Assembly (NCBI GenBank): GCA_965232015.1
Contig: OZ246946.1
Coordinates: 3,430,612-3,494,611 of the forward strand
Source of the DNA: Vicinamibacteria bacterium
GTDB lineage: Bacteria > Acidobacteriota > Vicinamibacteria > Marinacidobacterales > Marinacidobacteraceae
DNA: 64,000 bases
Reading direction: 5' to 3'
A program made the position numbers and the translations under genes. Positions within the stretch are counted from its first letter, which is position 1. Every line of letters starts with the position of its first letter. Positions 14,461 through 51,954 of the stretch are shown here, one piece after another. The notes beneath the pieces are model-generated. The model saw only the letters and a list, made by a program, of their open reading frames with translations, did not search any database and was not told where the DNA came from.

Positions 14461-14838
14461 CTACGCGAGTCGCCGGATCACGCCCAGCAGCCGGTCCACG
14501 TCGTCCCGGTTGTTGTACATCGCAATCCCGGCGCGGAGCAGACGCCCTTCCTCCTGAAACGTCACCGCCACGCCCTCGGCGTCGAGCGCCTGACTGAGCC
14601 GTGCGTGATCCAGCCCGTGGTGGAAGCTGACGATGTTGGACGGGTTCTTCGGCGGCGTGAACATCCGCATCCCGAGCGCCGCGGCGTCCTCCCGCAACCC
14701 GGCTGCAAGCGCATGGGTGTGCCCGGCGATCCGATCGAACCCGATCGGTTCGATGAACTCGAGCGCTGCGTCCATCGCGACGACGGGACCGAACGCGAGG
14801 CTCGCGTACTCGAACTTCCCGGCGCTCGCGTCGAGGCG
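14461..14838 (-). pseudogene. Class V aminotransferase (cysteine desulfurase / selenocysteine-lyase-like), C-terminal fragment separated from its N-terminus by an IS insertion
   Basis: Translation ...RLDASAGKFEYASLAFGPVVAMDAALEFIEPIGFDRIAGHTHALAAGLRE...VSFHHGLDHARLSQALDAEGVAVTFQ... matches the C-terminal domain of aminotransferase class V. Its reading frame continues from the fragment at 16345-17245 once the IS is conceptually removed. Confidence 0.6.
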
Positions 14839-14839
14839 G

Positions 14840-16344
14840 AATTCAGGCTGTGGACAAAAGCCCTTTTGGCCAGGAGTGGAGATGCTGGTATGGCACCTGG
14901 CGCGGCATGAAATGTGACGACGCCGGAAGCCGAGCAAGCCGAAATCGCGTCCCGAGGACGCCCCGCAGCCTCCAGAGGGCCCGGAAACGGCTCTGAAGGC
15001 GTCTCAGGCGCTCAAAATGCGACATCCGCGCCAGGCGCCGATACCGCTGCAGCGTTCTCGGCGTCCCGACCCCATACCGCGTCCGCATCAGCAGCCCCAG
15101 ATTGAACGCCGCAGCGTGGATCTGGAGTCGTTTGCCGATGTTCTCCCGCCCCCGCAGATACAGCCGCCGCAGCCCGCCGGTCTCGTAGCAGTGCGCGAAC
15201 GAACGCTCCACCACCTCCCCTCGCCGCGCAAGCCACCCCTTCGCGCAGGACCGCCGGATCCGACGCCGGTTCAGATACACCGCTTTCTTCTCCTCCTCCT
15301 TCCCCGCCCACTTCCGCCGCCCCCGCTGCGGCTCCGCCACATACGACCGCAGCCCCTTCCGCTTCAGCCCCACCATCGTCTCGTCGGAGTGATACCCCTT
15401 GTCGCACACCACCACCCGCACCTTTCCCCGCTCCACCTCCGCGTCCTCCAGCCGCGCCTCCATCTCCTCCACCGTCGTCTCCAGCGTCTTCGTGTCCCCC
15501 TGGTCTCCCGGCTGAACCACCACCGCCGCCATCGCACCGGTCTCCAAGTCCACCGCATGCTCCACCTTGTGCAGCATCCGCGTCTCCCCGCTCTTCATCT
15601 TCCCGATCCGCGCGTCCGGATCCACCGGCTGCGTCCATTCCCGGTTCCATCCGGTCTTCTTCTTCCTCCTCCGCTTCCGGTCCACCCGCTTCAGATCCGC
15701 CAGCGTCGGCGTCTCGATCCCCGACTCCCGCGCCAGCCGGCGCAGAAACTCCCGATACGCCTCCCCGCTGTCCCGGCGCCGGATCGCCCGCAGCGCCGCG
15801 TTCGCCCGCAGCGTCGTCCCGTCCACCCCCAGCTTCCGCCCCCGCAGCAACTTCGACTCCCGCAGCCGTCTCAGAACCCACGTGAACACCTCCTCGTGCG
15901 CCTCCAACGAGATCCGCTTCCGCGCCTTCGACAGCGTCGAGTGGTCCCACCCCCGATCCGTCGGCCCCAGCCCCACGAACTCCTTCAGACTCAGCGAGTC
16001 CCCCAGCTGCCAGGCGATCCCACGCTCCGACGGGATGCCCTCGAAATACCCCACCATCAGCAGACGGAAGTAGCTCTCCGGCGGCATGCTCGGCCGGCCT
16101 CTCCCCGACGCGTAGAACTCGCGACAGACATCCTGCGCGTGGTCGTCGAACCCCGCCTCATCCAAAACCTGGTTCAGCCCCCGGTAAAACGCACAGCCCG
16201 GACCTCTCGCGATGTCCGTCGTCGCAATCCACAACTTCCCTGGCCGTTCCACACGGCGCTTGCCCATCGCCATGCCTACAAATTGTAGAACCCCTCACGA
16301 TCCCCGACCCCAAAGACCTTCGGACTTTTTCCACAGACTGAATT
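14840..16344. mobile_element. IS5/IS1182-family insertion sequence (~1.5 kb) with imperfect terminal inverted repeats
   Basis: Left end GAATTCAGGCTGTGGACAAAAGCCCTTTTGG (14840-). The right end reverse-complement is CAATTCAGTCTGTGGAAAAAGTCCGAAGGTCTTTGG (-16344). A single transposase ORF lies inside. The element interrupts the aminotransferase CDS. Confidence 0.7.
14843..16273 (-). CDS. IS5/IS1182-family DDE transposase
   Basis: 476 aa. ...YFRLLMVGYFEGIPSERGIAWQ... and ...KLGVDGTTLRANAA... are the N-terminal transposase_11-like region. ...VVCDKGYHSDE... carries the DDE acidic residues. It sits between the inverted repeats. Confidence 0.8.
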   Translation of the reverse strand: MAMGKRRVERPGKLWIATTDIARGPGCAFYRGLNQVLDEAGFDDHAQDVCREFYASGRGRPSMPPESYFRLLMVGYFEGIPSERGIAWQLGDSLSLKEFVGLGPTDRGWDHSTLSKARKRISLEAHEEVFTWVLRRLRESKLLRGRKLGVDGTTLRANAALRAIRRRDSGEAYREFLRRLARESGIETPTLADLKRVDRKRRRKKKTGWNREWTQPVDPDARIGKMKSGETRMLHKVEHAVDLETGAMAAVVVQPGDQGDTKTLETTVEEMEARLEDAEVERGKVRVVVCDKGYHSDETMVGLKRKGLRSYVAEPQRGRRKWAGKEEEKKAVYLNRRRIRRSCAKGWLARRGEVVERSFAHCYETGGLRRLYLRGRENIGKRLQIHAAAFNLGLLMRTRYGVGTPRTLQRYRRLARMSHFERLRRLQSRFRALWRLRGVLGTRFRLARLPASSHFMPRQVPYQHLHSWPKGLLSTA

Positions 16345-17245
16345 GGTGGCCCGGCAGCCGCTCGGCGACCTGCCCGTGCCCGTGCCGGTCCGGGATCAGC
16401 CAGTCGAGGTGTTCGCGGCGCACATAGAACGGCGCGCAGCCGAAGTCGGCGTGGAGCCACTTGTAACCGTTGCCGCAGGCGAAGTCCACCTTTTCGTCGT
16501 GGAGGCTGGTCGGAAAGGTGCCCCACGCCTGGACGGCGTCGGCGAAGAGATACGCCCCGTGGGAGTGGGCGAGGTCGGCCAGAGCGGGGATGTCGTAGCG
16601 GAAGCCGTTGCGGTTCGACACCCAGGCGACGCTGAGGAGGCGGGTTCGGTCATCGGTCTGCGCGGCGAAGTCTTCGACACTCACCACGCCGTCCCGCGAC
16701 GGGATGATCCGGAGTTCGACCCCCGCCCGGCGCTCGAGCTCGCGGTAGAGCACGAAGGTCGTCACGAAGTGCAGCTCGTCCACGACCACGTTGTCGCCCG
16801 GCCGCCAGTCCATCGCGTTCACGACGATGTTTTCGGCGTCGCTGGTGGAGTAGAGGAAGGCGAGTTCGTCCTCGTCGGCGCCGAACAGCCGGGCGAAGCG
16901 GGAACGCGCGCCCGCCACCGCCTCGCCATTCGCCACCAGCTCGCGCCGGAGCATCTTGTTGTCGGCGTAGCGGTGCAGGGCGTCGCGGACCGGAGCCGAC
17001 AGCGGTCCCACCGCCGCGTTGTTCAGGTAGGCGAGCTCCTCGGCGACCGGGAAACTGTCCCGGACCCCAAGCGGATCCGTCGCCCCGGCGGTTGAGCCCG
17101 CCGAATCCGGCCGCTCCGACTTCCCGCGACCAGCCGATTCCCCCGCGAGCGCGCTGGCGCCCGGAACAGCGGCCAGCCCGGCCGCCGCGGTGGTCCGGAG
17201 GAAGCGTCGCCGCCCCCATGAGTTGTGCTGTTCCGTCGGCTTCAT
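16345..17245 (-). pseudogene. Class V aminotransferase, N-terminal fragment with Tat signal, disrupted by IS insertion
   Basis: MKPTEQHNSWGRRRFLRTTAAAGLAAVPGASALA is a Tat signal, followed by ...AYLNNAAVGPL... and ...FACGNGYKWLHADFGCAPFYVRREHLDWLIPDRHGHG..., the PLP-enzyme N-terminal and central region. The frame runs into IS-derived codons at about 16344. Confidence 0.6.
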
Positions 17246-17644: not shown

Positions 17645-19477
17645 ATGCACTACGAGAAAATGACGCACAACGACGCGGGGCAGCGGGTCGCTCCCCGCTC
17701 GCCCTACGACGAAGGGTGGAAGGAGTGGGTCTCAGCGACCGGGGTCCGTGGCTATATGCTCGGGGAGACGCTTGGGGATTGGCTGAACCTCTACGGTGGA
17801 GACCTCGGGTTCGAGAAGGATCCTGAACCGGACCGGAGGCTGGACCTTCGGGAATTCAACTTCAGGAAGGGGGCGGAGTTCGAGGAACGGGTGGCGCGTT
17901 ACTTCGAGGATCAACTCGCGCGCCTCGAGTTCGACGAGCGAGCTGAACTGGTCCGCATCACGCCGATCCGCGCAAGCAGCCGGGACCCGAAGTACGCGGA
18001 GGCTACGCTCGACGCGCTCGCGGATGGCCGCGGGATCGTTCACAGCGGCGTTCTGTGGAACCCGGAGACCCGAACTTACGGCGTCCCTGATTTCCTCATT
18101 CGGTCCGATGTCTTCAAACGTCTGTTTCCCGGTCATCCGGACCCGTACGGAGACTCCGTCCGCAGCGGAGATGAGGCCGGAGCGTTGGACTGGCGCTATG
18201 TCGTTGTGGACGCCAAGTTCACGACGCTCTCCCTCTTGAAGGGAAAACAAACCCGCGGGAAACTCGGAAAAACGCGTTCGTCTCCGGCATACAAGGCGCA
18301 GCTTTTCCTCTACAACGAGGCCCTTGGCCGGCTGCAGGGGGAGGCGCCACGCGTGGCTTTCCTGTTGGGTCGCGGGGAACGAGGTTCCAGCGCTACGGAG
18401 AAACTCGCATGGGTCGTGATGAAAGACGTCGAGCAGCGCACGAAGGCTGCCGTAAAGTGGGTTCGCGACCTGCGGTCGGAAGGCGGGACCTGGCGGGTGC
18501 TGCCGGAGCCGAGTCGTCCGGAGCTTCGGCCTCCAGGCACCGGCGATTGGCCGTGGACGGGCGCCATCCGGCAGATCACGGACCATCTCGGCGATCCGAT
18601 CCGGCTCTGGCAGGTCCGCGCCAAGGGACGCGACAAGGCCGTCAGAAACGGCATCACCTCGTGGCGTGACTCCGGGGCGACTGCAGCTTCCTTCGACGTC
18701 ACGGGACCAGCGACTGGGCCGAGGCTGGATGCGATTCTGGACGTGAACCGCACCGAAGGACCGATCGTGCGGCCAGTGCGCGTCACCGGCGCCGACGAGA
18801 CGTGGCGCGACCCTTACAGCCTGGAGTTCTTCGTGGACTTCGAGACCGTGAACAACACGAACGACGACTTTCGCCGCTTCCCCGAGAAAGGCGGGCAACC
18901 GATGATCTTCATGATCGGCTGCGGACACATGGAGGAAGGCCGATGGCGGTTCCGCTGCTTCGTGGCCGACCGGTTGACTCCGAACGCGGAGGCGGAGGCG
19001 ATCGATGCGTGGATCGAACACATGAGCTCGGTCGGAATTCGCTTCGGTGTGGCCGAGGAGGCCCCGCGGGTATTCCACTGGGGGCATGCGGAAAAAGTGA
19101 GGCTGGAGACGGCGTACGATTCGGCATTCAAGCGGCACCCGGACAAGGACTGGGCGTCCTCACTCAAGCTCGGGTGGTTCGATCTGCTGAGCGAGGTCGT
19201 GCAGGCGCAACCCGTGGTCGTGCGCGGCGCCTTCGCATTCGGGCTCAAGGAGGTTGCAAAAGCTCTCCACGGCCACGGCCTCATCAGCACCGAGTGGGGG
19301 GACTCGGAGGTGGACGGGCAGGGCGCCATGGTCGGTGCGTGGCACAGCGACCGAGAGGCGGAAGACAGGGGAGTCCGACTGATTGATACGGATCTCATGC
19401 AGGAGATCCGGCGCTACAACCAAGTGGACTGCAAGGTGATGCAGGAGATTCTCGAGTACCTGCGCCAGCATCACTAA
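17645..19477 (+). CDS. RecB-family nuclease, TM0106-like (N-terminal PD-(D/E)XK / Cas4-like nuclease + C-terminal RNase-H-fold DnaQ-like domain)
   Basis: 610 aa. ...GVPDFLIRSD...YVVVDAKFTT... is a D...D-x-K nuclease motif. FFVDFETVNN...HWGHAEK...YNQVDCKVM is a DEDD-exonuclease-like pattern. The start MHYEKMTH is at 17645; the upstream part of the listed ORF is Arg-rich junk. Confidence 0.55.
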   Translation: MHYEKMTHNDAGQRVAPRSPYDEGWKEWVSATGVRGYMLGETLGDWLNLYGGDLGFEKDPEPDRRLDLREFNFRKGAEFEERVARYFEDQLARLEFDERAELVRITPIRASSRDPKYAEATLDALADGRGIVHSGVLWNPETRTYGVPDFLIRSDVFKRLFPGHPDPYGDSVRSGDEAGALDWRYVVVDAKFTTLSLLKGKQTRGKLGKTRSSPAYKAQLFLYNEALGRLQGEAPRVAFLLGRGERGSSATEKLAWVVMKDVEQRTKAAVKWVRDLRSEGGTWRVLPEPSRPELRPPGTGDWPWTGAIRQITDHLGDPIRLWQVRAKGRDKAVRNGITSWRDSGATAASFDVTGPATGPRLDAILDVNRTEGPIVRPVRVTGADETWRDPYSLEFFVDFETVNNTNDDFRRFPEKGGQPMIFMIGCGHMEEGRWRFRCFVADRLTPNAEAEAIDAWIEHMSSVGIRFGVAEEAPRVFHWGHAEKVRLETAYDSAFKRHPDKDWASSLKLGWFDLLSEVVQAQPVVVRGAFAFGLKEVAKALHGHGLISTEWGDSEVDGQGAMVGAWHSDREAEDRGVRLIDTDLMQEIRRYNQVDCKVMQEILEYLRQHH

Positions 19478-19708: not shown

Positions 19709-20053
19709 CTACAGGTCAAGTACCAGGCGGAGGCCTTGTTCGACGCGAGTCATCCATCGCGGCGACGCTTCCCCCGCGTGATCCGTGAGGCGGTCTTCGT
19801 TCAGAGTCAGGATCTGCGCGATGTTCGCGACCGAGTCTCTCGGGAGCCCGGTGACCCTGGCGGGGAGGAGGACGTTCCCGGGCGCTTCGGCCAGGCGCGT
19901 GTTCGACGTGAGCGCGACAGTGAGCACGGTCCGGAGGCGGCTGGCGAGGAAGGCATCGGACTGCACCACGAGCACGGGCCGACGGAATCCAGGCTCCGAC
20001 CCGCGCGGCGAAGGCAGATCAGCCCACCAGATCTCGCCGCGGCGAGCTACCAA
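19709..20053 (-). CDS. mazF: Type II toxin, MazF/PemK-family mRNA interferase
   Basis: RGEIWWADLPSPRGSEPGFRRPVLVVQSD... is the canonical PemK/MazF N-terminal motif. 114 aa, overlapping the upstream antitoxin by 7 nt. Confidence 0.8.
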   Translation of the reverse strand: MVARRGEIWWADLPSPRGSEPGFRRPVLVVQSDAFLASRLRTVLTVALTSNTRLAEAPGNVLLPARVTGLPRDSVANIAQILTLNEDRLTDHAGEASPRWMTRVEQGLRLVLDL

Positions 20054-20283
20054 TCCTCGCGCCCCACGGCCTCCGACTGGGCCGCAGCGAACACCGGATC
20101 AAGGCCATCCGGCTGGTCCGGCAGGACTTCGTTCAGCTTCGCCGCGATGGCGGCCGCGCGCCGCCGGTCAAGGTATTCGGTGAGCGCCTTCGCATAGAGC
20201 CGGCTCCGGGAAATTCCCTTGCGTCGGGCCGCTTCGTCGGCGCGAGCGAAGAGGTCGTCCGGCAGCGAAATCGCGGTCTTCAT
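20047..20283 (-). CDS. mazE: Type II antitoxin, ribbon-helix-helix (CopG/MazE-like)
   Basis: 78 aa: MKTAISLPDDLFARADEAARRKGISRSRLYAKALTEYL is an RHH fold signature. It is immediately upstream of, and overlapping, mazF. Confidence 0.7.
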   Translation of the reverse strand: MKTAISLPDDLFARADEAARRKGISRSRLYAKALTEYLDRRRAAAIAAKLNEVLPDQPDGLDPVFAAAQSEAVGREDW

Positions 20284-20564
20284 GAGGGAATCATACGTTT
20301 GTCATACCCGTTGGGTCCGCGCCGACGGCCTCTCCCGTCCGGCGGCGGAACGAGGTGGCTGCGAGAGACGGGGCGAGTCCCTGAACAGCGCCCGGAAGCC
20401 GCCGGCTCACGCCCAGTCGAAGTCCTCTGGCACACGGAAGTCCCGGCCGGGAACCCGGGCCGACGTACCGGCCGGGACTCCACCGTGCTCCCGCGCACGA
20501 GCGAGGGGTAGCGACACGTGTTGTCGTATGCAGCGCGTAGCGTCTCAGGAGCCATGGGGGAGCG

Positions 20565-22550: not shown

Positions 22551-22722
22551 GCGGCCCTCCGGGGCTCCTCGCGAAACGCCACAAGGGGTCTCGCCTCCTC
22601 GCTCACGGCGGATGCCCGGCAGCCCGGCGGCGTTGAGCCAACACGCACTCTCCAAGGGATAGCTACGACGCGTGTTGTCACATCTCGGCTTTACCGTCAT
22701 TCGCTCCAGTGGGGAGAGAACC

Positions 22723-24864: not shown

Positions 24865-24962
24865 CGCTCGGCCGCCAGGTCCGGGCGGCCGGTGCGTTCC
24901 GGTGCGAAGTGCAAGCTGGTTCTCGGGTTCGTGGCGCCTGACCCAGATCGGCGCGAACCTGA

Positions 24963-25391
24963 CTACGGGGAAGGCAACTCGGTCTCGCGGTGACTGCGTC
25001 TGCTCCGCATGAGCCGGATCGGCCCTGGATACCGTCCAACCTCGCGGTCGGCGGTGAGCAGCGGGATCCCCTCGACCTGAGCCTGGGCGATCAGGATGCG
25101 ATCGAAGGGATCCTTGCGGATCGGTGGGAGGAGCGCTACGGCTGCCGCGTGGGCGCCGGTGACCGGGAGTTCGGTGTAGTCGTGCTCACGCAGCGCGTGG
25201 CGCAGAAACTGTGGATCCGGGAGCCCACCGCCGCGGCGCAGGGAACTCTTGATCGCAACCTCCCAGATGGACGCGGCGCTGAAGAGTGGCTGTCCGTTGG
25301 GATCTCTGATCAGTGCCAGGGCTCGCTCCGACAGGCGCTCGGGCGAAATCGCAGCCCACAGCAGGAGATGAGTGTCGAGAAGGAGTCTCAA
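24963..25391 (-). CDS. vapC: Type II toxin VapC (PIN-domain ribonuclease)
   Basis: MRLLLDTHLLLW...IWEVAIK...LLTAD... is a PIN-domain acidic-residue pattern. 142 aa; a 4-nt overlap with the upstream antitoxin. Confidence 0.8.
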   Translation of the reverse strand: MRLLLDTHLLLWAAISPERLSERALALIRDPNGQPLFSAASIWEVAIKSSLRRGGGLPDPQFLRHALREHDYTELPVTGAHAAAVALLPPIRKDPFDRILIAQAQVEGIPLLTADREVGRYPGPIRLMRSRRSHRETELPSP

Positions 25392-25669
25392 ACTTCTTCG
25401 GGGTCCCCTTCGTCACCGTCCGAGACACCCTCCCGTCGGCCCTCGAACATGGCCTGGATTTCGTCGGCGCCCAGAGTGTCGAAGTCGTCCGGCACCTGGA
25501 CCTGTCCAGTCAGGAAGCCCAGGCGCGTCTTCGGCGGGGGCGGCTCCACCGCACTCACCTGGACAAGCGGCGTCCCGGCGCGGGCGATGATGAAGGGCTC
25601 GCCGCCGACGGCCTCGCGCACCAGGCGCGAGAGATTGGTCTTGGCATGGTGCATGTTGACCTTTCGCAT
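25388..25669 (-). CDS. Type II antitoxin, Phd/YefM family
   Basis: MHHAKTNLSRLVREAVGGEPFIIARAGTPLVQV is a Phd/YefM N-terminal signature. It is translationally coupled to vapC. Confidence 0.7.
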   Translation of the reverse strand: MRKVNMHHAKTNLSRLVREAVGGEPFIIARAGTPLVQVSAVEPPPPKTRLGFLTGQVQVPDDFDTLGADEIQAMFEGRREGVSDGDEGDPEEV

Positions 25670-25874
25670 GACGACCCCCTCAGTCTAGCCCACCGGACTT
25701 AGTTTAGTCTCACGTCGGGGCAGGCCCCGTTGATCGGCCGCGGGTCGAGCGCAGCGGGGTCGGCGCACTTCGCGGTGATGCGCCGTGGCTCCCGTCGGTG
25801 TCGAGAACCGGCGTGGCGCGCCCTGTCCCGCGGCTGATTCCCGCGGCGGGCGCAGGCCGGCATAATCCGCCGCC

Positions 25875-40612: not shown

Positions 40613-40656
40613 TCGAGCGGGGCTGGTCCGCCGGCCCTTCGGTTCTCGCTGCGGAC

Positions 40657-43600: not shown

Positions 43601-43797
43601 GCCTCGTCGGGAAGATCCGGGTTTAGCCGGTCCAAGGCGTCACGTAGCCGATGTTCCAGAACGACTTCGGAGTGGTCGGCCCGCTCCGCGCCGTCCGCGT
43701 GCGGGGCGATGTCGGGACCGTGCGCCACCTTCCACCCGAGACCTTCGAGCCATTCGAGCGCGGCGGCTTCGACTTCCGACTCGGTGAAGATAGTCAT
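40657..43797 (-). CDS. hsdR: Type I restriction enzyme R subunit
   Basis: [22 protein letters not shown]... is the N-terminal nuclease region, with ...[18 protein letters not shown]... (PD-(D/E)XK). Helicase motifs are ...[12 protein letters not shown]... (motif I), ...[11 protein letters not shown]... (DEAH) and ...FIGFTGTP... A C-terminal helical domain follows. The start ATG is complementary to 43795-43797. Confidence 0.9.
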
Positions 43798-43882
43798 CAG
43801 GCACCCTCGCTGCCTGGTGCCGGCACAAACTTCGCCGCCTGGGCATCTCGCTCGCGTTGATGCGGGGCACTCCCGCGGTCGG

Positions 43883-46168
43883 TCATGCCGCACTTCCCCC
43901 GGAATCCGCAGACGACGTGACAAGTTTCACCATAGCTGAGAAGTGCTTGCCGTCTTCCGCCTTGATCATACACAGCAGATCGCTGAGCACGGAAGGCCCC
44001 TCTGCGAGCGCCGTCAAGTCATGCTCCGGTTCGCCCATAGCAATGCTGTGTGAGTGCGTGTGCAGGAACCGGAGAATCCGATGCTTCTTGGCTTCGTCGA
44101 ACGAGACTTCTTTCATCTTCTGCCACAGTCCTCCAGAAACCTGCGGCTGACGGAACGCGAGAAACGCTTCCAGCATGCGCCTGGCCATGTTTGGAAGGGC
44201 GTAATTCTCCTCAAGATCCCTCGATGCCGCCGTCGTTGCCGCTTCATGAATGCGGGCGAACAGATACTGGTATTCTGAGTCATACTCAGCAAGCAGTGGA
44301 TCGAGGCCCCGAATGGCGCTACTCCGTATGTTGTCCTCTTGCCCAGACTCGAGCATGAAGAATCGGGCGGGGCCGTTGCTCGAACTCCTACGTGCCCCAC
44401 CGTTCAGATGTCGAAACCAGTTGCGAACCTGTCGAAAGAAGGAGAAATTGTGTGTCAAGACGAACAGTTGGCCCGCGTCTCCCGTGCGTTCTCGAATGAA
44501 GCCGAACGCGAGGAACAACGCGTTCGCATCGAGGCTCGACACTGGATCGTCCAGTACCACGACCCCACGCGCACGCTCGAATCGTCTGTCCTGCAGGGAC
44601 TTAAGAAAGTACAAGAGAGCGATGGCGGTAGTCTCTCCCTCGCTCACCGATCGAACTGGTTCGCCACTGCGTGTGATGGAGTAGCCCGTTTCCTTGATCC
44701 CGAGGGATAGCTCGCCATGACCGAGATACTTTCGCAGATCCTCGTTCAGATCCTCGGCCGGCCGCCGATGCTCTACCATCTCGCCTTCGAGCTTGGCGAT
44801 CTTGGCATCCAACCGCTGCGCCGCTCGCTCGTTCGTTCCTCGATCCGCGCGTGCACTAGTCGCTGCGTCCTGCAATAGAACGAACTCGTCCAGCTCGAAG
44901 GCAATCATGTGTCTGGCCAACCGGTTCCGGGCCTCTTCACGCCCAGTCTCGAAAGTCTCGCTCTCCTCATTATGCTCTCTGATCACCGTGTTTAGCTTCT
45001 CTACCACGTCCTCATCCATCTGCGGCTGCTTGAACTCCACCTTTACCTCCTCAAATGCCCGAGCCTTCTTGCATGCCAGCGCCTGAATTAGAACGCCGAG
45101 GAATCCGCGCGTTGAACCCAGTGCGTCCCTCAGCGCGCGCTCACAAGACTGGAATTCTCGGACGAAATGGTCATAGAGAGCCGTCGGAGGGGGTACCTCG
45201 ATGCCGTCGGCCGCCTCAAGTGCAGTCTCTAGTCGTTGGAGCTGCTGGTCGATGTGCTGAAGCAACCGGTCGTACTCCACGTTGAAATGTGCGCTAAGGA
45301 CATCCAAACGCTGCTGTGGCAACGACTGGCTGCAGAACAGGCACTGTTCGGCCTTCCTATCCCGGTGCAACGTCAGACCTTGGAGTGTCCAGTCGGCGAG
45401 CGCGGGATCGCCCTTCAAAGCGTCAATCGCGGCTGAACCAACCGTTGTCGTTAGGACTGTTAGCACCCGGTCCCTGAGTGTGTTGAAATCCGGCAAGGCA
45501 TAGTCGAGCTCGGCGACTCGCGGTTTCGCCGTACCGTTATGGTGAGCACGGAGTCTGTCGTGATCCGTGTCGGTCAAGCGGTGAATCGTAGCGTCACCGT
45601 TGGCAAGCATCTGCCTTGCGTCATTCAGGAAATTGGACTTGTTGTAGTTGTTGTAGCGATTCTGGCGGCCAGCCCTGAGGGTGTTCTTGATGTGTTTCGC
45701 ACGCTCGATACAGAATCGGTCCAGTTTGCTATTGGCTTCCTGCTCGGCGGAACGCGCCCATGTCAGGGTATCTACGAGTGCCGCGCGATCCCTCTGTAGG
45801 TGCTCAAGCGTTCTTTGCTTCTCCACGCTCTCCGCGCCCAGCACGAGAATGGGAGGCATGTCGCCGCCTCCGACGGGCAACACGTTCTCCTCAACGAAGT
45901 CCCGGTTGAACACTCGGATGTGAAGCGGCGAGTGCGGGAAGGCGTCGCCCGGCACATCGTGACCGTTGATGCGCAAAACGGCCTCGCCCATCCCCGGCGC
46001 GCGAGCAACCTCAAGGCTTCGAAACAGCCGGCTCAGCGTCGTCTTGCCCGTCCCATTCCAGCCGTAGATGACGTTGTAACGTCCGAATTCAGGAAGGTTT
46101 GACGGCCACCTGAAGTCGCGGAAGATGCCACACCTGCGCAACCGTGCTATTCGGTCGATGCGTGTCAT
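43883..46168 (-). CDS. RloC/PrrC-like AAA_13 ATPase, putative anticodon nuclease embedded in the type I RM locus
   Basis: Walker A is ...[13 protein letters not shown].... A long coiled-coil insert carries CxxC (EQCLFCSQ; a zinc-hook like RloC). The Walker B/D-loop is ...[12 protein letters not shown]..., with an H-loop ...LTHN... A ~170-aa C-terminal domain follows. Location between hsdS and hsdR mirrors the E. coli prr locus. Markedly lower GC. Confidence 0.55.
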
Positions 46169-47466
46169 TCCGCCCTCTCGAGGAACCTCGTCGTATCGTA
46201 AGCGTGCAGTTGTCCGGCGATGAGTCGCGGGAGTAGCGTGTCGCGGAGTGTCACGAGGCTACGACTGCTCAGTTCGTTGGCAACTCGTCGCTCCAGCATG
46301 CTCGAGAAAGTTCCCGATAGTCTCGCGATCACGTCATCGGGAGGCGCAACGCAGAGGGCTTCCGTCAGATGGTGCCGCCTGATGTGTCCCATGGTTGTGG
46401 CCTTGTCCTGGGCGATCCGTCGGAATGTCCGAAGATGGGACAGCAGAGAGTGAAGGTAGAACCACTTGGGATACCTCGCCGACGTGACCTTGAAGAGGTG
46501 CTGGTTCAAGGCCGCCCGCCCACCGCACCACGTTCTGACCAGCAGGCTTCCTGACCACGAGAACACAACGTCGCCATCCTCGATTATGCACACTGGTCTG
46601 ATAGCGGCACTCGCCCACTCCCCGCTATTCGCCTCTCCAGCCCGCAACTGGGCGATCTTGACCACCGGCAGTCGTGCTTCGTTCTTCGCGGGCCGGAACT
46701 TCTGAAGAGCAAGCCCGTTCTGGAACCGCGCGATCTCGTCGAGCGGGGCTGCGTTCCACCCCAACGGTATCTTGCCCATCTCGGAATCCACCATCCGGTC
46801 GGGGAAGAGGTCGGCGATCTCGTGCGGCACGCCCGTGTCGCGGCCCTCCATCTGGGCGCGGACGGGATCGAAGTCCACGAACCAGGACTTAAAGAGCGCT
46901 CGGGCCATCGCCTCCAGCGTCCAGTTCATCCGCCGGTTCAGGTCGATCTTGTTGTCGAGCGTCTCCAGTACGTCGACGATACGGCAGCGAATCGTGTTCA
47001 GGTGGGGAACCCGCAGACCCAGAAAGTCTTCCCGCGCAAGGCCCAAGTTTGTCGTCCCAGTTGCGCATGCTCGACAGTACGCACGGACTTGAGGTGTTCG
47101 AAGCAACCAGTAGATGTAGTCACTCGGGACATCTTCCAGTTTCGGTATCAACTTGACTGTGTCCTGAGTCAGGCGACCTGAATACTGTGCGGACGGAAGT
47201 CTGGCAACGGCACCAAGCAGGTCCGCCGCTTGGGTGACGTCTTTCAGGGAGACATAGAGGTCTCGAGGTTGAACCATGAGGTGATCCGGGGAATCGCCTC
47301 CGTAGGTTCGCAGGGAATCCGAGCGGAATCCACCGTTGCGCTGAATTGTCGCGAGCCCGAGCAGCAAAGGACCGGGTTGCCCGAGGAGACGGCTCTTGTA
47401 CGTCCTACCTCTCTGAAGGGTAAAGTAATCCCCCAATGTCTTGTCAGCAGTTGTTGAGATGGGCAT
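46165..47466 (-). CDS. hsdS: Type I restriction-modification specificity subunit
   Basis: Two target-recognition domains plus conserved spacer helices (...LLPRLIAGQL..., ...PLGWNAAPLDEIARFQNG...). The ATG is at 47466. The same reading frame continues upstream without a stop into the MNT domain. Confidence 0.8.
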   Translation of the reverse strand: MPISTTADKTLGDYFTLQRGRTYKSRLLGQPGPLLLGLATIQRNGGFRSDSLRTYGGDSPDHLMVQPRDLYVSLKDVTQAADLLGAVARLPSAQYSGRLTQDTVKLIPKLEDVPSDYIYWLLRTPQVRAYCRACATGTTNLGLAREDFLGLRVPHLNTIRCRIVDVLETLDNKIDLNRRMNWTLEAMARALFKSWFVDFDPVRAQMEGRDTGVPHEIADLFPDRMVDSEMGKIPLGWNAAPLDEIARFQNGLALQKFRPAKNEARLPVVKIAQLRAGEANSGEWASAAIRPVCIIEDGDVVFSWSGSLLVRTWCGGRAALNQHLFKVTSARYPKWFYLHSLLSHLRTFRRIAQDKATTMGHIRRHHLTEALCVAPPDDVIARLSGTFSSMLERRVANELSSRSLVTLRDTLLPRLIAGQLHAYDTTRFLERAE

Positions 47467-47505
47467 CGCTGGATGCCTTGAACCGATCGCCTGGGAATCC
47501 GACCT

Positions 47506-47820
47506 CGGATCCTGCACGGCTACGCCGTGTCGCCGGATGATGTTGCGAAATCCTTCGTCGGTCCTGGCCCAGTCCACGACATCGACCTTGAACGGCAGAT
47601 CGGAGTCTCCGAGCGCCTCGTCCAAGGCGGAGACTGTGCGTAGCGGGAGGGGCTCCTCACCCATGACCGCCAGGTCGAGGTCCGAGTAGTCCTTTGCGGT
47701 CCAGGTCGCGCGGGATCCAAAGGCGAGCACCTCGCGATCCGGTACATGAATCCGTAGAGCGCGGCGGACGATAGCCCAATGATCGGGCCGGAGGTCGACG
47801 CTAGGTACGGAAGTCCTCAT
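47506..47820 (-). CDS. MNT-type minimal nucleotidyltransferase (HepT/MNT toxin-antitoxin partner); no stop codon, in frame with hsdS
   Basis: ...LAFGSRATWTAKDYSDLDLAV... is the GS...D-x-D nucleotidyltransferase motif. The start ATG overlaps the HepT stop (TAATG) at 47820. The ORF track shows one uninterrupted frame from 47967 to 46165. Confidence 0.6.
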
Positions 47821-48227
47821 TACAGCCAGTCCCGCAGCCGGTCCCGGAGATAGGCCACCTCCTCGAGAAACCCCGGAATGGCCGCAACCACGGTCTCCGC
47901 GATCGACTCGTTGTAGGTGTGGCTCGTCATGCCGCGCATCTTCCGGTAGTCGCGCCATTCGGGCCACGCCCCGAGCAAAAGCCCCTGCTCGTTCGCCGTG
48001 CGGATCTGATCCTGAAAGGTCATTTGATCGAACAGCGCCGGGTTGGCCGCCGTGAATTCCAAGTAGCGCTTCAGAGTCTTGCAGCCGAGTTCGTAGGTGA
48101 ACTCGAAACGCTGAATCAGGCCGTCGCGAATCTGAAGGTCGCTCGTGTCCTCCCGATACCGCTCCAGTCCCTCCGCCAGCCGTTGGATCGCCCGTTCGAA
48201 GGGTGTGATGTCCGGGATGTCATACAT
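47820..48227 (-). CDS. HepT-like nucleotidyltransferase-substrate-binding protein (HI0074 family, HEPN RNase toxin)
   Basis: MYDIPDITPFERAIQRLAEGLERYRED...RDGLIQRFEFTYELGCKTLKRYL... matches the NTase_sub_bind family. It lies 4 nt downstream of the hsdM stop. Confidence 0.7.
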   Translation of the reverse strand: MYDIPDITPFERAIQRLAEGLERYREDTSDLQIRDGLIQRFEFTYELGCKTLKRYLEFTAANPALFDQMTFQDQIRTANEQGLLLGAWPEWRDYRKMRGMTSHTYNESIAETVVAAIPGFLEEVAYLRDRLRDWL

Positions 48228-48231
48228 GTGG

Positions 48232-49785
48232 TTACCGACTCCAGAATCCCAGCGCCGCAAGGTTCGCGGTGATCGCGGCGTCGAGCCGCGCGCCCTCGGC
48301 CTGCTGTTCGCGAAGCTCCGACACCAGCCGCTCCATTTTGTCCTCGAACGGCTCGCCGTCATCCTTCTGGGGCTCCACGCCTACGTAGCGACCTGGCGTG
48401 AGTACGTGGCCGTGCTTGCGGACTTCGTCTAGGGGGGCGCTCCGGCAGAAGCCAGCGATGTCCTCGTAGTGGCTGTCGCCGCCCTTCCTCCAAGCGCGGT
48501 AGGTGTCGGCCATCCGGGCGATGTCCTCATCCGTGAGTTCTCGGTGCGTCCGGTCCGCCATCCGGCCCAGCTTCCTCGCATCAAGAAAGAGGATTTCGCC
48601 ACGACGCTGCCGTCGTCCTCGGGCGAGGAACCAGAGGCACGCCGGGATCTGGGTCGAGTAGAAGAGCTGGCCGGGCAGGGCGACCATGCACTCCACGAGT
48701 CCAGACTCGACGAGAGCTGCGCGGATCTTGCCCTCGCCGGATTGGTTCGAGGACATGGACCCGTTGGCCAGCACGAACCCCGCGACGCCTCGCGGCGCGA
48801 GGTGGTGGACCATGTGCTGCACCCAGGCGAAGTTCGCGTTGCCCTTTGGCGGAACCCCGTAGCGCCAGCGCCCGTCCTCGGCCAGACGCTCGCCGCCCCA
48901 GTCCGAGACGTTGAATGGCGGGTTGGCGAGGATGAAGTCCGCCTTCAGATAGGGATGGTGGTCGTCGTGGAAGCTGTCCCCGTGGGCGATCTGCCCGCCG
49001 ATCCCGCGGATGGCGAGGTTCATCTGCGCCAGGCGCCAAGTGGTGTAGTTGGACTCCTGGCCGTAGATCGAGATGTCTCCGCGCCTCGTCCCTCCGTTCC
49101 CGTTTCCGTTCGCGTGGGCGCGGATGAACTCCACGGACTGCACGAACATGCCCGCGGAGCCGCAGCAGGGGTCGTACACGCGCCCTTCGTACGGCTCCAG
49201 CATCGCGACGAGCAGCTTCACGATGCAGCGCGGCGTGTAGAACTCGCCACCCCGCTTTCCCTCCGAGTCCGCGAAGCGCGAGAGGAAGTACTCGTAGACG
49301 CGCCCCAGCACGTCCCGGGAACGGGCCTCGGCATCACCGACCCGAATGTTCCCGACGAGGTCGATCAGTCCTCCGAGACGCTGCTTGTCGAGCGCCGGGC
49401 GGGCGTAGTCCCTCGGCAGCACCTGCTTCAGAGCCGGATTGTCCCGCTCGATGGCCGCCATCGCCCGGTCCACGGTCTGCCCGATGGTGGGTTGCCGCGC
49501 TTCAGCTTGCAAGCGCCCCCAGCGAGCCTCGCGGGGGACCCAGAAGATGTTGTCGGCGACGTACTCATCCCGCTCTTCCGCCGCATCCTCGCCCCACTCG
49601 GCGAGCAGCGCTGCGTGGTGCTCTTCGAAGGCGTCCGAGATGTACTTGAGGAAGATGAGTCCGAGGACCACGTGCTTGTACTCGGCGGCGTCCATCGAGC
49701 CGCGGAGCTTGTCGGCCATTTCCCACAGCTCCGCCTCGTAGCCGGTCGTGGCGCCGCTCGTGGCGTTGCGCTTTGCCATACTCAT
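48232..49785 (-). CDS. hsdM: Type I restriction-modification N6-adenine DNA methyltransferase subunit
   Basis: ...[13 protein letters not shown]... is a motif I / SAM-binding site. ...ILANPPFN... is motif IV (NPPF/Y). The N-terminal HsdM_N region is ...[14 protein letters not shown].... The start ATG forms an ATGA overlap with the upstream MNT2 stop. Confidence 0.9.
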
Positions 49786-50075
49786 CGCGGCTTCTCTCTC
49801 GCCGGCGACTCGGAGTGGTTCTCCCGGAGCGCCACATGATGCGCCTCGATCCCGCTGCGGAACGACTTCGGCACATCGTCCCACACGAAGAGATCCACGC
49901 GGAACGGAAGGTTGCTCTCCTCGAAGGCCTCGCGCAGGCTGCCGACCTCCGGTCGCTGGTCAGGGGTGGCGAAGACGACGAGATCGAGATCCGACCAGGG
50001 TCGCGAGGTGCCCTGTACGCGGGATCCGTAGGCCCAGGCGGGCGTGTCAGGCAAGTGTTGCCTGAGCAGCGACAT
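49782..50075 (-). CDS. MNT-type nucleotidyltransferase (second HepT/MNT pair)
   Basis: ...[21 protein letters not shown]... is the nucleotidyltransferase GS...DxD motif. About 97 aa. Confidence 0.7.
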
Positions 50076-50116
50076 GACAGCCCGGCGCTCGGCTGCGCTC
50101 AGGTCGAGGCGGTCGT

Positions 50117-50533
50117 CTAGTCCCACGTCACACCACTCATGGTCTCGTAGAGCCCGATCGCGTCGGCGATGAACTCCGGCACCAGGGCGACACAGGCCCG
50201 CGCCTTGGCGCCATCGTAGTCGTGGGTGGTATCGGTTCTGGCATCGGCGTATCGAAACCAGTGAGCGATCGGCGCATCGAGCAGATGGTTCTCTCGCGCC
50301 AGCCGCAGGAGGGGCTTCGGGCTGTTGGGCGGATCCACGAGCCCGAGCTCCTTCATCAAGTACCGCTTCAGCACCTTCCAGAGGCAGTCGTAGCAGACCT
50401 CGAATCGCTGGATCACGGATTCGGCTCGCGCCTCTCGGTCCAGCCGGGATACGGTGTGGTCGGTGGCCTCGAAGTTGGCGTGCTGCTCGATGAGACGCGC
50501 CAGCGAGAGCCGGAACTTGCCGTAGTCGATCAT
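50117..50533 (-). CDS. HepT-like nucleotidyltransferase-substrate-binding protein (second pair)
   Basis: ...VIQRFEVCYDCLWKVLKRYL... is the same family signature as the 47820-48227 gene. It is upstream of its MNT partner and hsdM. Confidence 0.65.
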   Translation of the reverse strand: MIDYGKFRLSLARLIEQHANFEATDHTVSRLDREARAESVIQRFEVCYDCLWKVLKRYLMKELGLVDPPNSPKPLLRLARENHLLDAPIAHWFRYADARTDTTHDYDGAKARACVALVPEFIADAIGLYETMSGVTWD

Positions 50534-50649
50534 GCCGCTCCGTGTGACCGCCGGCTCTGCGGCATCGCGTGGGGGAACGAGAGGCCTCGCGAAGCGGACG
50601 GACCTCGCCGCGGGGCGGGAGTGAACATCGAGCTGTCCATGGACCGTGA

Positions 50650-51954
50650 TCAGCGGGCGCCGCGGAGGATGTCCATCGGGAAGATGCCAATCGCCTTCAC
50701 GATCCGTCCGTCACGGAGCACGAAGCGCACATCCTCCATCGTGCGGATGTCCTCGACCGGGTCGCCCTCGACCGCGATCACGTCGGCCGCGTAGCCCGGG
50801 GCGATGCGGCCGATCTCGTCTTCGAGGCCGAGCGTTCTTGCGGCGACCGTCGTGGCCGAACGGAGCGCGGCTTCGGGGCTGAGTCCGAGCCCGGTCATCA
50901 CCGCGAACTCGCGCGCGGCCTGCTCGTGGGGGAAGATCGTGTCCGAGCCGAACGCCACCGGAACGTCCGCGGCGAACGCGGCGCCGATGCGGCGGTCGCG
51001 CTCCTCGATCAGGTCCCGCGCCTTCTGGATGCTCTCCCGCGGGAAGCCGATCGCCTCGCCCGCTTCGACGATGTAGTTCATCACGTAAAGCGTGGGCACC
51101 ATCGGGACGCCGCGCTCGCGAAACAGTCGGATCCCCTTCTCGTCCACGAGGGTGGCGTGTTCGACCGAATCCACGCCGGCGCGGAGCGCGGTGTTGATCC
51201 CGGGGGCGCCGTGCGCGTGGACGGTGATCTTCTTCCGGTGGCGGTGGGCTTCCTCGACGGCCGCCCGCACCTCCTCCTCGGTGTAGGTGCTCACGTTCGG
51301 GTCGTCGCCCGCCGACATGACCCCGCCGGTCATCATCAGCTTGATCCAGTCCGCGCCGTACTTGAACTCGCGTCGGATCTCGAGGCGAAGCCCCTCCGGA
51401 CCATCGGCGATCCGGGTGGGTGTTTCGATGTGGAGGTCGGCCATCAGGTTGTTGAAGTCGCCGTGACCGCCGGTGGCCGAAATCGCGTGCGGGGCGACGA
51501 GAAGCCGCGGGCCCTCGTGGTCGCCGCGGGCGATGGCCCGCTTCAGGTCCACCGTGCCGTAGTGGCCGTCGAACTCGCCCGGGGTGCGCAGGGTGGTGAA
51601 CCCCGCGCCGAGCATCTTCTGCGCGTTCTTCAGCGCGTCGAGGGCGCGGGCGGCGCTGGAGCGGTTCATGTCGAGCGCGGTGAGCGTCTCCGGGTTGATC
51701 GTGAGATGCGCGTGCATGTCGATCAGCCCCGGCAGGCACGTGTGACCCGAGAGGTCCACGACTTCCGCGGCGGAGTTCGCGGGACCGGTGACGATCCGGC
51801 CGTCCCGCACCACGATGTCGGCGCCTTCGCCCATGGCTTCGCCGTCGAACACGGCGCCGCAGCGGAGGACGGTTTCCTCCTGGGCCGTGGCCGAGAAGGC
51901 GCCCAGCGCGGGGAGCGCGAGGACTGTGAGGAAAGAGATCAGGGACTTCTTCAT
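50650..51954 (-). CDS. Amidohydrolase-family metal-dependent hydrolase, secreted
   Basis: There is a signal peptide. ...PGLIDMHAHL... is the HxH metal-binding motif, and ...HAHG... and ...AFGSDT... are present. 434 aa. Confidence 0.8.
   Translation of the reverse strand: MKKSLISFLTVLALPALGAFSATAQEETVLRCGAVFDGEAMGEGADIVVRDGRIVTGPANSAAEVVDLSGHTCLPGLIDMHAHLTINPETLTALDMNRSSAARALDALKNAQKMLGAGFTTLRTPGEFDGHYGTVDLKRAIARGDHEGPRLLVAPHAISATGGHGDFNNLMADLHIETPTRIADGPEGLRLEIRREFKYGADWIKLMMTGGVMSAGDDPNVSTYTEEEVRAAVEEAHRHRKKITVHAHGAPGINTALRAGVDSVEHATLVDEKGIRLFRERGVPMVPTLYVMNYIVEAGEAIGFPRESIQKARDLIEERDRRIGAAFAADVPVAFGSDTIFPHEQAAREFAVMTGLGLSPEAALRSATTVAARTLGLEDEIGRIAPGYAADVIAVEGDPVEDIRTMEDVRFVLRDGRIVKAIGIFPMDILRGAR

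Follow-up and report, generated by a model that had tools for sequence, protein, structure and literature searches.

A 33-kb defence-rich region of a marine Vicinamibacteria genome as the probable cargo of a chromosomal hot spot

The 64,000-nt stretch of Vicinamibacteria bacterium analysed here (GenBank assembly GCA_965232015.1, contig OZ246946.1, positions 3,430,612 to 3,494,611 of the forward strand; hereafter the window) carries a dense series of restriction-modification (RM), toxin-antitoxin (TA) and other defence-related genes. Is this region one mobile element, an old segment of the lineage, or a site at which separate modules have accumulated? The evidence strongly favours the last answer: window positions ~17246-50651 (~33 kb) are very probably the cargo that a hot spot, a variable region of the chromosome, has gathered: modules of different ages, acquired independently of one another and stacked together, and not one mobile element. 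The host is a Vicinamibacteria genome of the genus-level group 'Ca. Marinacidobacterium', which is marine and probably sponge-associated.

Genes in the window (~69% GC) were called by third-position GC (GC3) and annotated by Pfam, PADLOC and NCBIfam profile scans. A scan with the amidohydrolase of the right flank, keeping one genome per species, yielded 24 relatives, whose loci were compared with the window by tblastn and blastn. All 24 are metagenome-assembled genomes (MAGs) of Acidobacteriota labelled Vicinamibacteria or 'Ca. Marinacidobacterium', many with sponge-metagenome-style names. L016 denotes the closest other species (~84% DNA identity in the flanks) and L124 a sister species. A conspecific 3.8-Mb contig with a circular-style name (ERZ21861969 ctg21614c, ~98% identical; loci L026, L033 and L043) was compared over window 13.9-38.1 kb and 48.8-64 kb. 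Additionally, three short-read contigs from other samples (L032, L034 and L035) span cassette borders.

Conserved flanks and variable cargo

The same core genes flank the slot on both sides in the 24 relatives and in two conspecific assemblies. According to the comparison with the relatives, the backbone order is NfeD, Band7, XDH, (amidohydrolase paralog), gamma-glutamyltranspeptidase (GGT), amidohydrolase, the variable region, (PBP, LOG and TonB-type OMP), aminotransferase, DAO, DAO, homoserine dehydrogenase (HSDH), WYL and PCMT. In the window, the genes at the two borders are as follows.

11773-13185 (+): DAO1, first of two tandem FAD-dependent (DAO) oxidoreductases of the left backbone (Pfam DAO 1.2e-39)
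13182-14420 (+): DAO2, the second of the pair
14461-14843 (-): C-terminal part of a class-V aminotransferase, a split backbone gene (Pfam Aminotran_5, profile 245-371)
14844-16339 (-): IS1182-family insertion sequence (IS) of 1496 bp, transposase at 14843-16273 (NCBIfam transpos_IS1182 8.8e-48; Pfam DUF772 and DDE_Tnp_1)
16340-17245 (-): N-terminal part of the aminotransferase (profile 2-227)
50650-51954 (-): amidohydrolase, right backbone (Pfam)
51951-53687 (-): GGT, right backbone (Pfam)

The amidohydrolase and GGT genes (GC3 0.91) are kept in the 24 relatives with 64-90% amino acid identity. On the left, DAO1, with its start at 11773, carries a Tat-like signal and a GxGxxG motif; DAO1 and DAO2 are paralogs with 74-81% DNA identity, and the DAO genes adjoin HSDH in L001, L017, L018 and L124. 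A WYL/WCX-domain protein encoded at 9269-10400 (PADLOC WYL 1.5e-19) adjoins HSDH in L017, L018 and L124; since it is conserved there, it is a backbone regulator outside the island.

The aminotransferase gene is intact in the conspecific locus L033 (427 aa) and also in L001, L019 and L124. In the window, it is split by the IS1182-family element, which has 19-nt terminal inverted repeats (89% complementary) and a 5-bp target duplication, GAATT, at 14839-14843 and 16340-16344; in L033, the IS is absent and the two alignments overlap by 5 bp. An extreme GC skew (-0.36) at 15001-16000, over the transposase gene, reflects a + strand that is strongly C-rich there (CTCC/CCGC runs). An earlier note on this DNA, made from the letters alone, had placed the island at 14461-50650 between housekeeping genes. 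Its right edge holds (~50651), as does the IS-disrupted gene that it described. Because the aminotransferase is a conserved backbone gene, however, the island proper begins at ~17246 and not at 14461. Nor are the flanks purely housekeeping, as further accessory islets lie at 53.8-63.5 kb.

Between these borders, the slot is empty in L015, where PBP lies 30 bp after the amidohydrolase, and in L017, where a dehydrogenase fragment alone precedes DAO. It measures 1-4 kb in L001, L005, L013, L019 and L021, and it holds an unrelated type I RM system in L003, L004, L006, L008, L014, L023 and L024 (HsdR ~25%, HsdM ~30% identity). A census of 126 open reading frames (ORFs) in the slots of 23 relatives found 11 N6_Mtase, 7 HsdR, 5 HsdS, 9 AbiEi, 5 AbiEii, 6 Schlafen-AlbA2 and three each of BsuBI/PstI, Fic, ParE and PIN_3 proteins. 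Such a mixture of RM, Abi and TA families marks the slot as a defence hot spot. The island of the window carries, as recognised defence genes, a type I RM locus, a PDC-S06/RloC-like gene, a three-gene operon with SspF/G-, DndH- and mad7-8-like products (hereafter the trio), two HEPN/MNT pairs, MazEF and Phd/VapC. Two other cargoes were also observed, namely a 1802-aa HATPase_c_3/sacsin-like protein in the slot of L002, and Schlafen-AlbA2/HATPase_c_4 and McrBC genes beside Phd/VapC in L124 (16711-21836).

The cargo also differs from the backbone in composition. GC3 was 0.880+/-0.025 in backbone genes (n=19) and 0.784+/-0.066 in island genes (n=21; Mann-Whitney p=1.2e-6), and the leave-one-out codon index against the backbone fell from 0.72 to 0.55 (p=1.6e-6). 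Two low-GC patches, at 38117-40660 (GC 0.622) and 43788-48240 (GC 0.596; flanks 0.695), match homology breakpoints to the base (38117/40660 and ~43788/48240). From 44 to 48 kb, every 1-kb window has a GC of 0.574-0.610, under every flank window (0.647-0.743). The deviation is graded: hsdR (GC3 0.875) and hsdM (0.842) are near-native, most cargo genes lie at 0.77-0.84, and the most deviant are the RloC-like AAA_13 gene, hsdS and MNT1 (0.69-0.72), together with the 100-aa ORF and the SDH protease and DUF2513 genes of the first patch (0.62-0.72). The AT-rich RloC-like gene, hsdS region and 38.2-40.6 kb patch of the earlier note are thus borne out by segment GC, and the windowed GC and codon check that it proposed finds the island deviating.

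Modules and their insertion points

All genes listed in the earlier note are present, among them mazEF, the ankyrin paralogs and phd/vapC. From the left border to the trio, the island contains the following genes.

17645-19477 (+): two-domain nuclease, 610 aa (AF2 structure model and Foldseek)
19709-20053 (-): MazF toxin (PemK_toxin 4.9e-25)
20047-20301 (-): RHH MazE-like antitoxin (RHH matches weak, 1e-3)
20565-22550 (+): Ank1, ankyrin-repeat paralog (Ank_2 9.6e-88)
22672-24864 (+): Ank2, ankyrin-repeat paralog (Ank_2 7.5e-81)
24963-25391 (-): VapC, PIN toxin (PIN 6.2e-13)
25388-25669 (-): Phd antitoxin (PhdYeFM 7.5e-6, under the Pfam cut-off)

The 610-aa nuclease had no Pfam, PADLOC, NCBIfam or PDB sequence match. 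Its AF2 model (pLDDT 89.4) was matched by Foldseek to Cas4 (8d3l_I, prob 1.0), DnaQ (8h2f, 0.99), MGME1 (8xa9, 0.99) and also RNase HI, and the model indicates an N-terminal Cas4/MGME1-like PD-(D/E)xK domain and a C-terminal DnaQ/RNase H-like domain resembling 3'-5' exonucleases. The family comprises 750 prokaryotic homologs of ~600 aa, with almost no Pfam annotation and some members named 'ribonuclease H-like'. L124 carries a copy at the same position, divergent from the aminotransferase gene (-), with 83% DNA identity. As this is the backbone level, the nuclease gene is an older resident beside the aminotransferase gene and not a private insertion. The 'RecB-family nuclease insertion' of the earlier note is therefore correct as to the family, at fold level, and incorrect as to the insertion. 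Full-length relatives of the nuclease (21-33% identity) were also seen on seven IMG/VR contigs (L036-L042; 12-316 kb, five of them 140-316 kb), two of the seven labelled giant-virus MAGs, which says nothing about the island.

Ank1 and Ank2 contain 90-nt repeat families, and their non-repeat ends are 73-75% identical. Both genes are 99.8-100% identical to those of the conspecific genome and are absent from L016 and L124. The ankyrin proteins are eukaryote-like, and their genes do not count as defence genes; they would be host-interaction cargo of a kind usual in sponge symbionts, as MAGs from sponges show an enrichment in RM, TA and ankyrin genes (PMC8163846). An 'ankyphage' origin of the ankyrin genes was rejected, no viral relative of Ank1 being found. 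An RHH MazE-like gene with 81% amino acid identity also lies beyond hsdR in L016, and L124 has an orthologous Phd/VapC pair (66-70% amino acid, 71.6% DNA identity).

The trio and its 3' neighbours occupy the next 12 kb.

25875-29807 (+): trio gene 1, 1310 aa, with NERD domain, Ser/Thr-kinase-like region (aa 444-702) and SspF/DndF-like P-loop region (aa 750-1020)
29791-31599 (+): trio gene 2, 602 aa, MAD7/SspG-like
31596-36683 (+): trio gene 3, 1695 aa, with C-terminal DndH/DptH-like ATPase
36705-36947 (+): u80, 80-aa ORF, N-terminal McrB-like remnant (similarity to L124 McrB; AAA_5, McrB_lid)
37005-38192 (+): AAA_16 ATPase (AAA_16 6.3e-9)
7530-7623, 11560-11770, 13047-13150 and 36609-36673 (no strand): REP/MITE-like intergenic repeat family (repeat families D11, D12 and I2)

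Window 25681-36704 (~11 kb), which holds the trio, corresponds to a 230-bp spacer between Phd and McrB in L124. The start of McrB follows the trio as u80, whose first 47 aa share 66% amino acid identity with the start of L124 McrB (DNA identity 78.5%). Together, these two observations identify the trio as a clean insertion into that spacer. Among 80 metagenomic loci, u80 and AAA_16 were never found beside the trio elsewhere. In L043, AAA_16 is disrupted by a 2.2-kb IS with a 7-bp duplication. The REP/MITE-like repeat consists of 13-nt CCGGGAGAACTGG units, GGAGCGCCGGACTCC and G-rich ends, lies at gene 3' ends and is genome-native; within the island, it is represented by the copy at 36609-36673, which marks the trio's 3' junction. 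Another copy, at 13047-13150, seems to lengthen the DAO1 ORF by ~50 codons.

PADLOC matches of the trio are partial and distant (SspF 7.9e-19, SspG 3.7e-5, mad7 2.6e-5, mad8 8.9e-16 and DndH 1.2e-13), and the mad8 match is confined to the C-terminal 350 aa of the 1695-aa protein. By NCBIfam, MAD7 was matched near full length (3.7e-33, 115 bits against a cut-off of 410), and MAD6 was matched at 6e-20 with its best stretch, aa 5-111, in the NERD N-terminus. PDB matches were kinases for gene 1 and, for gene 3, a partial and distant match to DptH (7es4, 1.2e-5). The 602-aa protein has 448 homologs; the 120 listed are 48-62% identical, the conspecific copy aside, and each of these 120 has the precomputed Pfam family PF26611 (MAD7). 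Moreover, 76 of 80 metagenomic loci contain all three genes at full length and in the same order, and the homologs are spread over many unrelated metagenomic lineages. The neighbours in these 80 loci are heterogeneous. Three N6_Mtase and three N6_N4_Mtase proteins occur among the 149 flanking ORFs, and type I genes lie directly upstream of the trio in L044, L056 and L113. A methyltransferase as an obligate neighbour is thus not supported (6/149 flanking ORFs). In the window, the trio operon contains no methyltransferase or specificity gene (mad2 etc.), the nearest methyltransferase being the type I hsdM ~11.5 kb away, and no dndABCDE or sspABCD genes were found by the profile scans. The aminotransferase was rejected as a DndA/SspA for the trio because it is a conserved backbone gene found without the trio in relatives. 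From these similarities, the trio appears to be a distant and widespread relative of DndFGH, SspFGH and the MADS genes MAD6-8, and the 'candidate novel system' of the earlier note is not a new class.

Downstream of AAA_16, the first low-GC patch coincides with a hypervariable cassette slot.

38117-40660 (+): cassette slot, breakpoints 38116/38117 and 40660/40661
38280-38582 (+): 100-aa ORF
38877-39710 (+): SDH-type ClpP-like protease (Pfam SDH_protease 2.6e-12)
39992-40108 (+): M78 peptidase remnant, 39 aa
40241-40612 (+): DUF2513 protein (Pfam 6.5e-23)

At least three alleles with identical breakpoints occupy this slot: the SDH/DUF2513 allele in the window, L032 and L034, an HTH_31-HicB-M78-DUF4411 allele in L035, and a third allele in L043. 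The M78 allele is probably ancestral, because it is homologous to L016. The SDH peptidase/DUF2513 patch reported earlier is present and coincides with this swappable 2.5-kb cassette.

The remainder of the island is a minus-strand operon that reads, 5' to 3' from 50533 to 40657, HEPN2-MNT2-hsdM-HEPN1-MNT1::hsdS-AAA_13-hsdR.

40657-43923 (-): hsdR (HSDR_N, SWI2_SNF2, T1R_D3-like, T1RH-like_C; PADLOC REase_I E=0, covering 4-1024 of 1029)
43883-46168 (-): AAA_13 protein, 761 aa, between hsdS and hsdR (AAA_13 2.9e-145; PDC-S06 1.7e-246; PrrC 1.3e-9)
46165-47820 (-): MNT1::HsdS in-frame fusion (Polbeta 5.1e-9 and Methylase_S; PADLOC Specificity_I 7.1e-92, near full length)
47820-48227 (-): HEPN1, PF08780, HI0074-type, with RGMTSH (Rx4H) motif (NTase_sub_bind 9e-33)
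48232-49779 (-): hsdM, real start ATG 49779 by junction alignment (N6_Mtase 3.1e-105, HsdM_N; PADLOC MTase_I 2.2e-215)
49780-50651 (-): HEPN2/MNT2 cassette, 872 bp, with HEPN2 at 50117-50533 (RTDTTH) and MNT2 at 49782-50120 (GSx10DLD; Pfam)

The hsdM, hsdS and hsdR genes are all present at full length, without internal stop codons, and PADLOC confirms the complete type I RM locus that had been proposed. Relative to L016, hsdR has 82% DNA identity over 40661-43787 and hsdM 83%, a flank-like value (95% to L026), and the two HsdS proteins are 36% identical. In L016, hsdM directly follows the amidohydrolase and hsdR is present, both HEPN/MNT pairs are missing, and DUF4365 (L016 14528-15205) occupies the AAA_13 position. 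In L016, hsdR is followed by an HTH/M78-peptidase gene and the MazE-like gene, in that order, and nothing of window 20.3-40.6 kb is present. The HEPN2/MNT2 cassette fills the spacer between amidohydrolase and hsdM, which is 28 bp in the conspecific L026 and ~31 bp in L016.

The AAA_13 protein carries hallmark sequence motifs of RloC, in agreement with the earlier description of an RloC-like gene. Specifically, it has a Walker A motif (GWNGTGKT) at residue 36, SEGE at 509, a Walker B/D-loop at 536-547, LTHN with the linchpin His at 571, and a CLFC (CxxC) motif at 276. A pattern match further finds R663-x3-E667-x37/39-His, with H705 or H707 as the His and a Ser before H707. The hallmarks of RloC include Arg-x3-Glu-x36-52-His, often with Ser before the His, and a CxxC zinc hook in a coiled-coil insert, with C291 in Gka RloC (PMC2610378, Davidov and Kaufmann). 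We regard the protein as a candidate RloC-like anticodon nuclease in the position of PrrC.

MNT1 (GSx10DLD) runs into HsdS without a stop codon (GC3 0.72), and the stop codon of HEPN1 overlaps the MNT1 start codon. PADLOC PDLC03138 matches both MNT1::HsdS and the standalone MNT2 (profile 2-105). The fusion is recurrent, as ~65 of the best 120 homologs have an NTase and Methylase_S in one protein, and its homologs are spread over many unrelated metagenomic lineages. One homolog of 630 aa (P0275) combines NTase (PF18765), NTase_sub_bind (PF08780) and Methylase_S (PF01420) in one chain. The fusion was not found in term searches of two reviews, PMC3632139 (MNT/HEPN/RloC) and PMC3710099 (HsdS and R-M terms), or among the titles from a literature search. 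As for the HepT/MNT modules of the earlier note, two HEPN/MNT pairs are present, but their HEPN proteins belong to PF08780 and not to the HepT family, PF01934.

To the right of the island, smaller accessory genes interrupt the backbone.

53816-56272: accessory islet between GGT and XDH with SoFic (PADLOC 2.9e-118), a Rv0623-like antitoxin with PIN VapC, and an orphan FitA-like RHH
58655-59623: DUF4268, in the closest relatives only
61.7-63.5 kb (within 61662-63999): AAA_21 and DUF4276 pair, HEC-01-like (PADLOC HEC-01 A subunit 4e-47), followed by an AAA+/DUF4143 ATPase

DUF4268 and the HEC-01-like pair represent further minor insertions of accessory genes amid the backbone (Band7/NfeD, XDH). 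At the position of 53816-56272, most relatives have the amidohydrolase paralog, and Fic is found in the main hot spot in L013, L018 and L021.

Build-up of the island and rival explanations

The differences between the conspecific genomes are discrete, comprising the IS1182-family element, the 872-bp cassette, the alleles of the cassette slot and the IS in AAA_16 of L043. Together with the comparison across relatives, they establish stepwise acquisition beyond composition. The presence-absence check suggested in the earlier note, with its empty slots, unrelated cargo and discrete insertions, likewise supports the stepwise horizontal acquisition that the note had proposed. The other yardstick of that note, the same gene order throughout in close genomes, holds mostly for the conspecific strain and not for other species. 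As this strain shares most of the gene order, acquisition is older than strain divergence.

Identity to the conspecific genome is mosaic (0.997-1.000 at 21-28 kb, 0.94-0.95 at 17-20 kb, 0.936 at 35-36 kb and ~0.98 in the flanks), which is the pattern expected from recombination tracts. One tract of ~7 kb (21000-28000), which takes in both ankyrin paralogs, Phd/VapC and the trio's 5' part, stands out: here the two strains share 99.7-100% identity, compared with ~98% elsewhere and 94-95% directly to its left. This points to recent import by recombination or to a sweep affecting the ankyrin region.

The island was probably built up as follows. The oldest layer, near-native and shared with other species, would comprise hsdM and hsdR, the M78 neighbour (now a remnant), Phd/VapC beside McrB (now a remnant) and the nuclease gene. 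Among these, the two ankyrin genes with MazEF, the 11-kb trio, the AAA_16 gene, the swappable 2.5-kb SDH protease/DUF2513 cassette and the 872-bp HEPN/MNT cassette would have been inserted. A 4.5-kb replacement inside the RM operon would have introduced the RloC-like ATPase, the new MNT-fused hsdS and HEPN1, and the IS1182-family element has separately hit the adjacent backbone gene. We infer that turnover proceeded by homologous recombination anchored in the flanks and in internal genes (hsdM, hsdR and AAA_16), plus IS activity, with no site-specific integrase. The TA pairs may aid retention of the island.

One-step, site-specific entry of a single integrative element (a genomic island, an integrative and conjugative element or a prophage remnant), with its integrase or att site outside the window or lost, is very improbable and already largely refuted. 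Such an element would suit the GC below that of the flanks, the TA modules of a kind often stabilising islands, the nearby IS and the tRNA-Ser(gct) that ARAGORN proposed 5 kb to the left. However, both borders lie within the window, beside genes that are adjacent or nearly so in relatives, and the tRNA call at 11830-11918 was rejected as an att site, as it is inside the DAO1 coding sequence, has no Rfam match and is missing in relatives; false calls of this kind could mislead searches for island boundaries. Among the called window genes, none matched Phage_integrase, Resolvase or rve, in line with the lack of an integrase remarked earlier, no conjugation genes were found in the 64-kb window by the same scans, and the IS1182-family element supplies the sole transposase. 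In L026, no integrase, recombinase or conjugation gene was called in the 6.6 kb past the right end, and no long direct repeats pair the island borders (seed 14, minimum length 30). Moreover, the parts differ in age and distribution: hsdM and hsdR are common to L016, Phd/VapC and the nuclease gene are common to L124, and the trio, the cassettes and the HEPN/MNT pairs are private. Phage or plasmid similarity is likewise missing; a plasmid origin was rejected when megablast of 17250-42000 against PLSDB gave short hsdR matches alone.

It is also improbable that the region is ancestral to the clade, with differences arising mainly by differential loss and the composition reflecting constraints on individual genes or their weak expression. 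The same order at ~98% identity in the conspecific genome, the flank-like divergence of hsdM and hsdR from L016 and the moderate GC3 deviation of most island genes are in keeping with this explanation, and the lack of PBP-LOG-OMP in the window demonstrates that loss occurs. Yet loss cannot yield unrelated systems in the same slot (HsdR 25%, AbiE, BsuBI/PstI). In addition, the places of insertion exist in relatives as short, intact spacers (28 bp, 230 bp and 30 bp), both ends of the most AT-rich segments fall exactly on homology breakpoints, and the trio and MNT-HsdS have homologs in many unrelated lineages. An assembly or binning chimera of different organisms is hardly credible, even though the source is probably a metagenome and the composition shifts abruptly at several points, because the same joins occur with 98-99% identity in the independent 3.8-Mb contig (13.9-38.1 kb and 48.8-64 kb) and also in the short-read contigs L032, L034 and L035 from other samples, of which L032 and L034 cover 35.7-41.8 kb. 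The genome-native repeat inside the island points in the same direction.

Several points nonetheless weigh against a stack of independently acquired modules at a hot spot. The modestly low GC3 of most island genes (0.78-0.84) could partly reflect low expression and not foreign origin. All genomes compared are MAGs, and the loci of the relatives span 10 kb, so island size and content there are seen within that reach. Recombination is read from mosaic identity, and no transfer event, donor or mechanism was directly observed. The window is without the PBP-LOG-OMP genes that many relatives carry before the aminotransferase, so deletion or replacement has shaped the site besides insertion. Finally, the conspecific genome carries nearly the whole island, which is now vertically inherited, and the defensive role proposed below is drawn from gene families.

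Proposed function and comparison with known systems

Family membership suggests that the hot spot cargo would provide layered defence against phages and other mobile genetic elements. DNA would be restricted by the type I enzyme and probably also by the translocase/nickase-like trio, while the RloC-like protein, HEPN, MazF and VapC would act as RNase-based abortive back-ups leading to suicide or dormancy. The idea of immunity-dormancy coupling, as set out in PMC3632139, fits such layered defence.

The most unusual features, both on architectural grounds, appear to be the placing of HEPN before MNT::HsdS and the 'guarding' of the type I operon by two RNases. They invite a bolder proposal, which we consider doubtful, namely that the type I operon is a wired 'restriction plus retaliation' unit and, independently, that the trio reads its methylation mark in trans. 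Two RNase toxins would then be guarded by the restriction enzyme, the RloC-like protein in the PrrC slot and HEPN through the MNT fused to HsdS, and inactivation or degradation of the RM complex by a phage would release the HEPN RNase. The HEPN-then-MNT-HsdS arrangement is widespread, occurring in about half of the closest HsdS homologs; if the proposal were true, HEPN/MNT-HsdS would represent a mechanism of coupling that is general and has not been described before.

Whatever its function, the locus provides a base-resolved example of a defence hot spot built and remodelled without an integrase in an uncultured marine Acidobacteriota lineage. Its modes of remodelling are the nesting of cassettes into short spacers, swaps at fixed breakpoints, replacement of the variable RM core, IS hits and recombination tracts, and ankyrin host-interaction genes travel inside the defence island. 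It also draws attention to three kinds of module, common in metagenomes and so far little described: a trio lacking a modification partner, fusions of the HEPN-then-MNT-HsdS type and an RM-linked RloC-like PDC-S06. Current ideas are thereby extended to a new clade, none is overturned, and testable candidates are supplied.

Among known systems, the trio resembles DndFGH and SspFGH in its SspF/DndF-like P-loop protein, its SspG-like protein and its ~1700-aa protein with a DndH/DptH-like C-terminus (7es4). Neither in the window nor in most of the 80 related loci, however, do dndABCDE or sspABCD genes adjoin it. With MADS, it shares the MAD7-like protein and a first gene with NERD and kinase N-terminus as in MAD6; MAD6-8 are the mandatory genes of MADS in the model of its authors. 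Unlike MADS, it has no dedicated methyltransferase adjacent, here or in most of the related loci. Compared with all three systems, its matches are far under family cut-offs, and a single 1310-aa protein unites the kinase with the F-type ATPase. The abstract of PMC11662687 presents DndFGH as a nickase/translocase complex, and the trio may be a DNA-targeting effector of the same DndFGH/SspFGH/MADS-core superfamily.

The AAA_13 protein resembles the PrrC of EcoprrI in being an ABC-ATPase/HEPN-type protein encoded between hsdS and hsdR, and the slot resembles that of the Campylobacter 'rlo' restriction-linked ORFs in holding different ORFs by genome (DUF4365 in L016). PrrC, however, has ~400 aa and no coiled-coil insert, whereas the window protein has 761 aa, an insert of ~450 residues separating Walker A (36) from the signature (509), and a weak, partial match to the PrrC model (1.3e-9); it matches best to PDC-S06, an uncharacterised candidate family of PADLOC. 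An assignment to PrrC was accordingly rejected on these grounds. The protein also departs from RloC, which is rarely RM-linked (PMC2610378, PMC3710099), in being RM-linked. The HEPN and MNT proteins share with the HEPN-MNT TA systems (HI0073/HI0074; HepT/MntA) the Rx4H and GSx10DxD motifs and overlapping stop and start codons. According to PMC3710099, HEPN genes are often embedded in RM operons and MNT is almost always 5'. In contrast to this norm, HEPN precedes MNT in both window pairs, the HEPN proteins are PF08780 rather than HepT (PF01934), and one MNT is covalently fused to HsdS.

At the level of the whole region, the closest comparison is with core-gene hot spots such as the one between pheT and a histidine kinase gene in P. 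aeruginosa, which carries MADS (bioRxiv 10.1101/2023.03.30.534895). Conserved boundaries, variable RM, Abi and TA cargo, stacked systems and a size from empty to tens of kb are common to both. The present locus differs in lying in uncultured marine Vicinamibacteria, in having no integrase, tRNA or prophage associated, in including ankyrin genes in its cargo, and in having much of its variation within a type I RM operon that is resident there. A classical genomic island has an integrase at one end and a tRNA/att insertion, and neither was found on testing. The defence island at this hot spot is thus of a known kind, here in a new clade.

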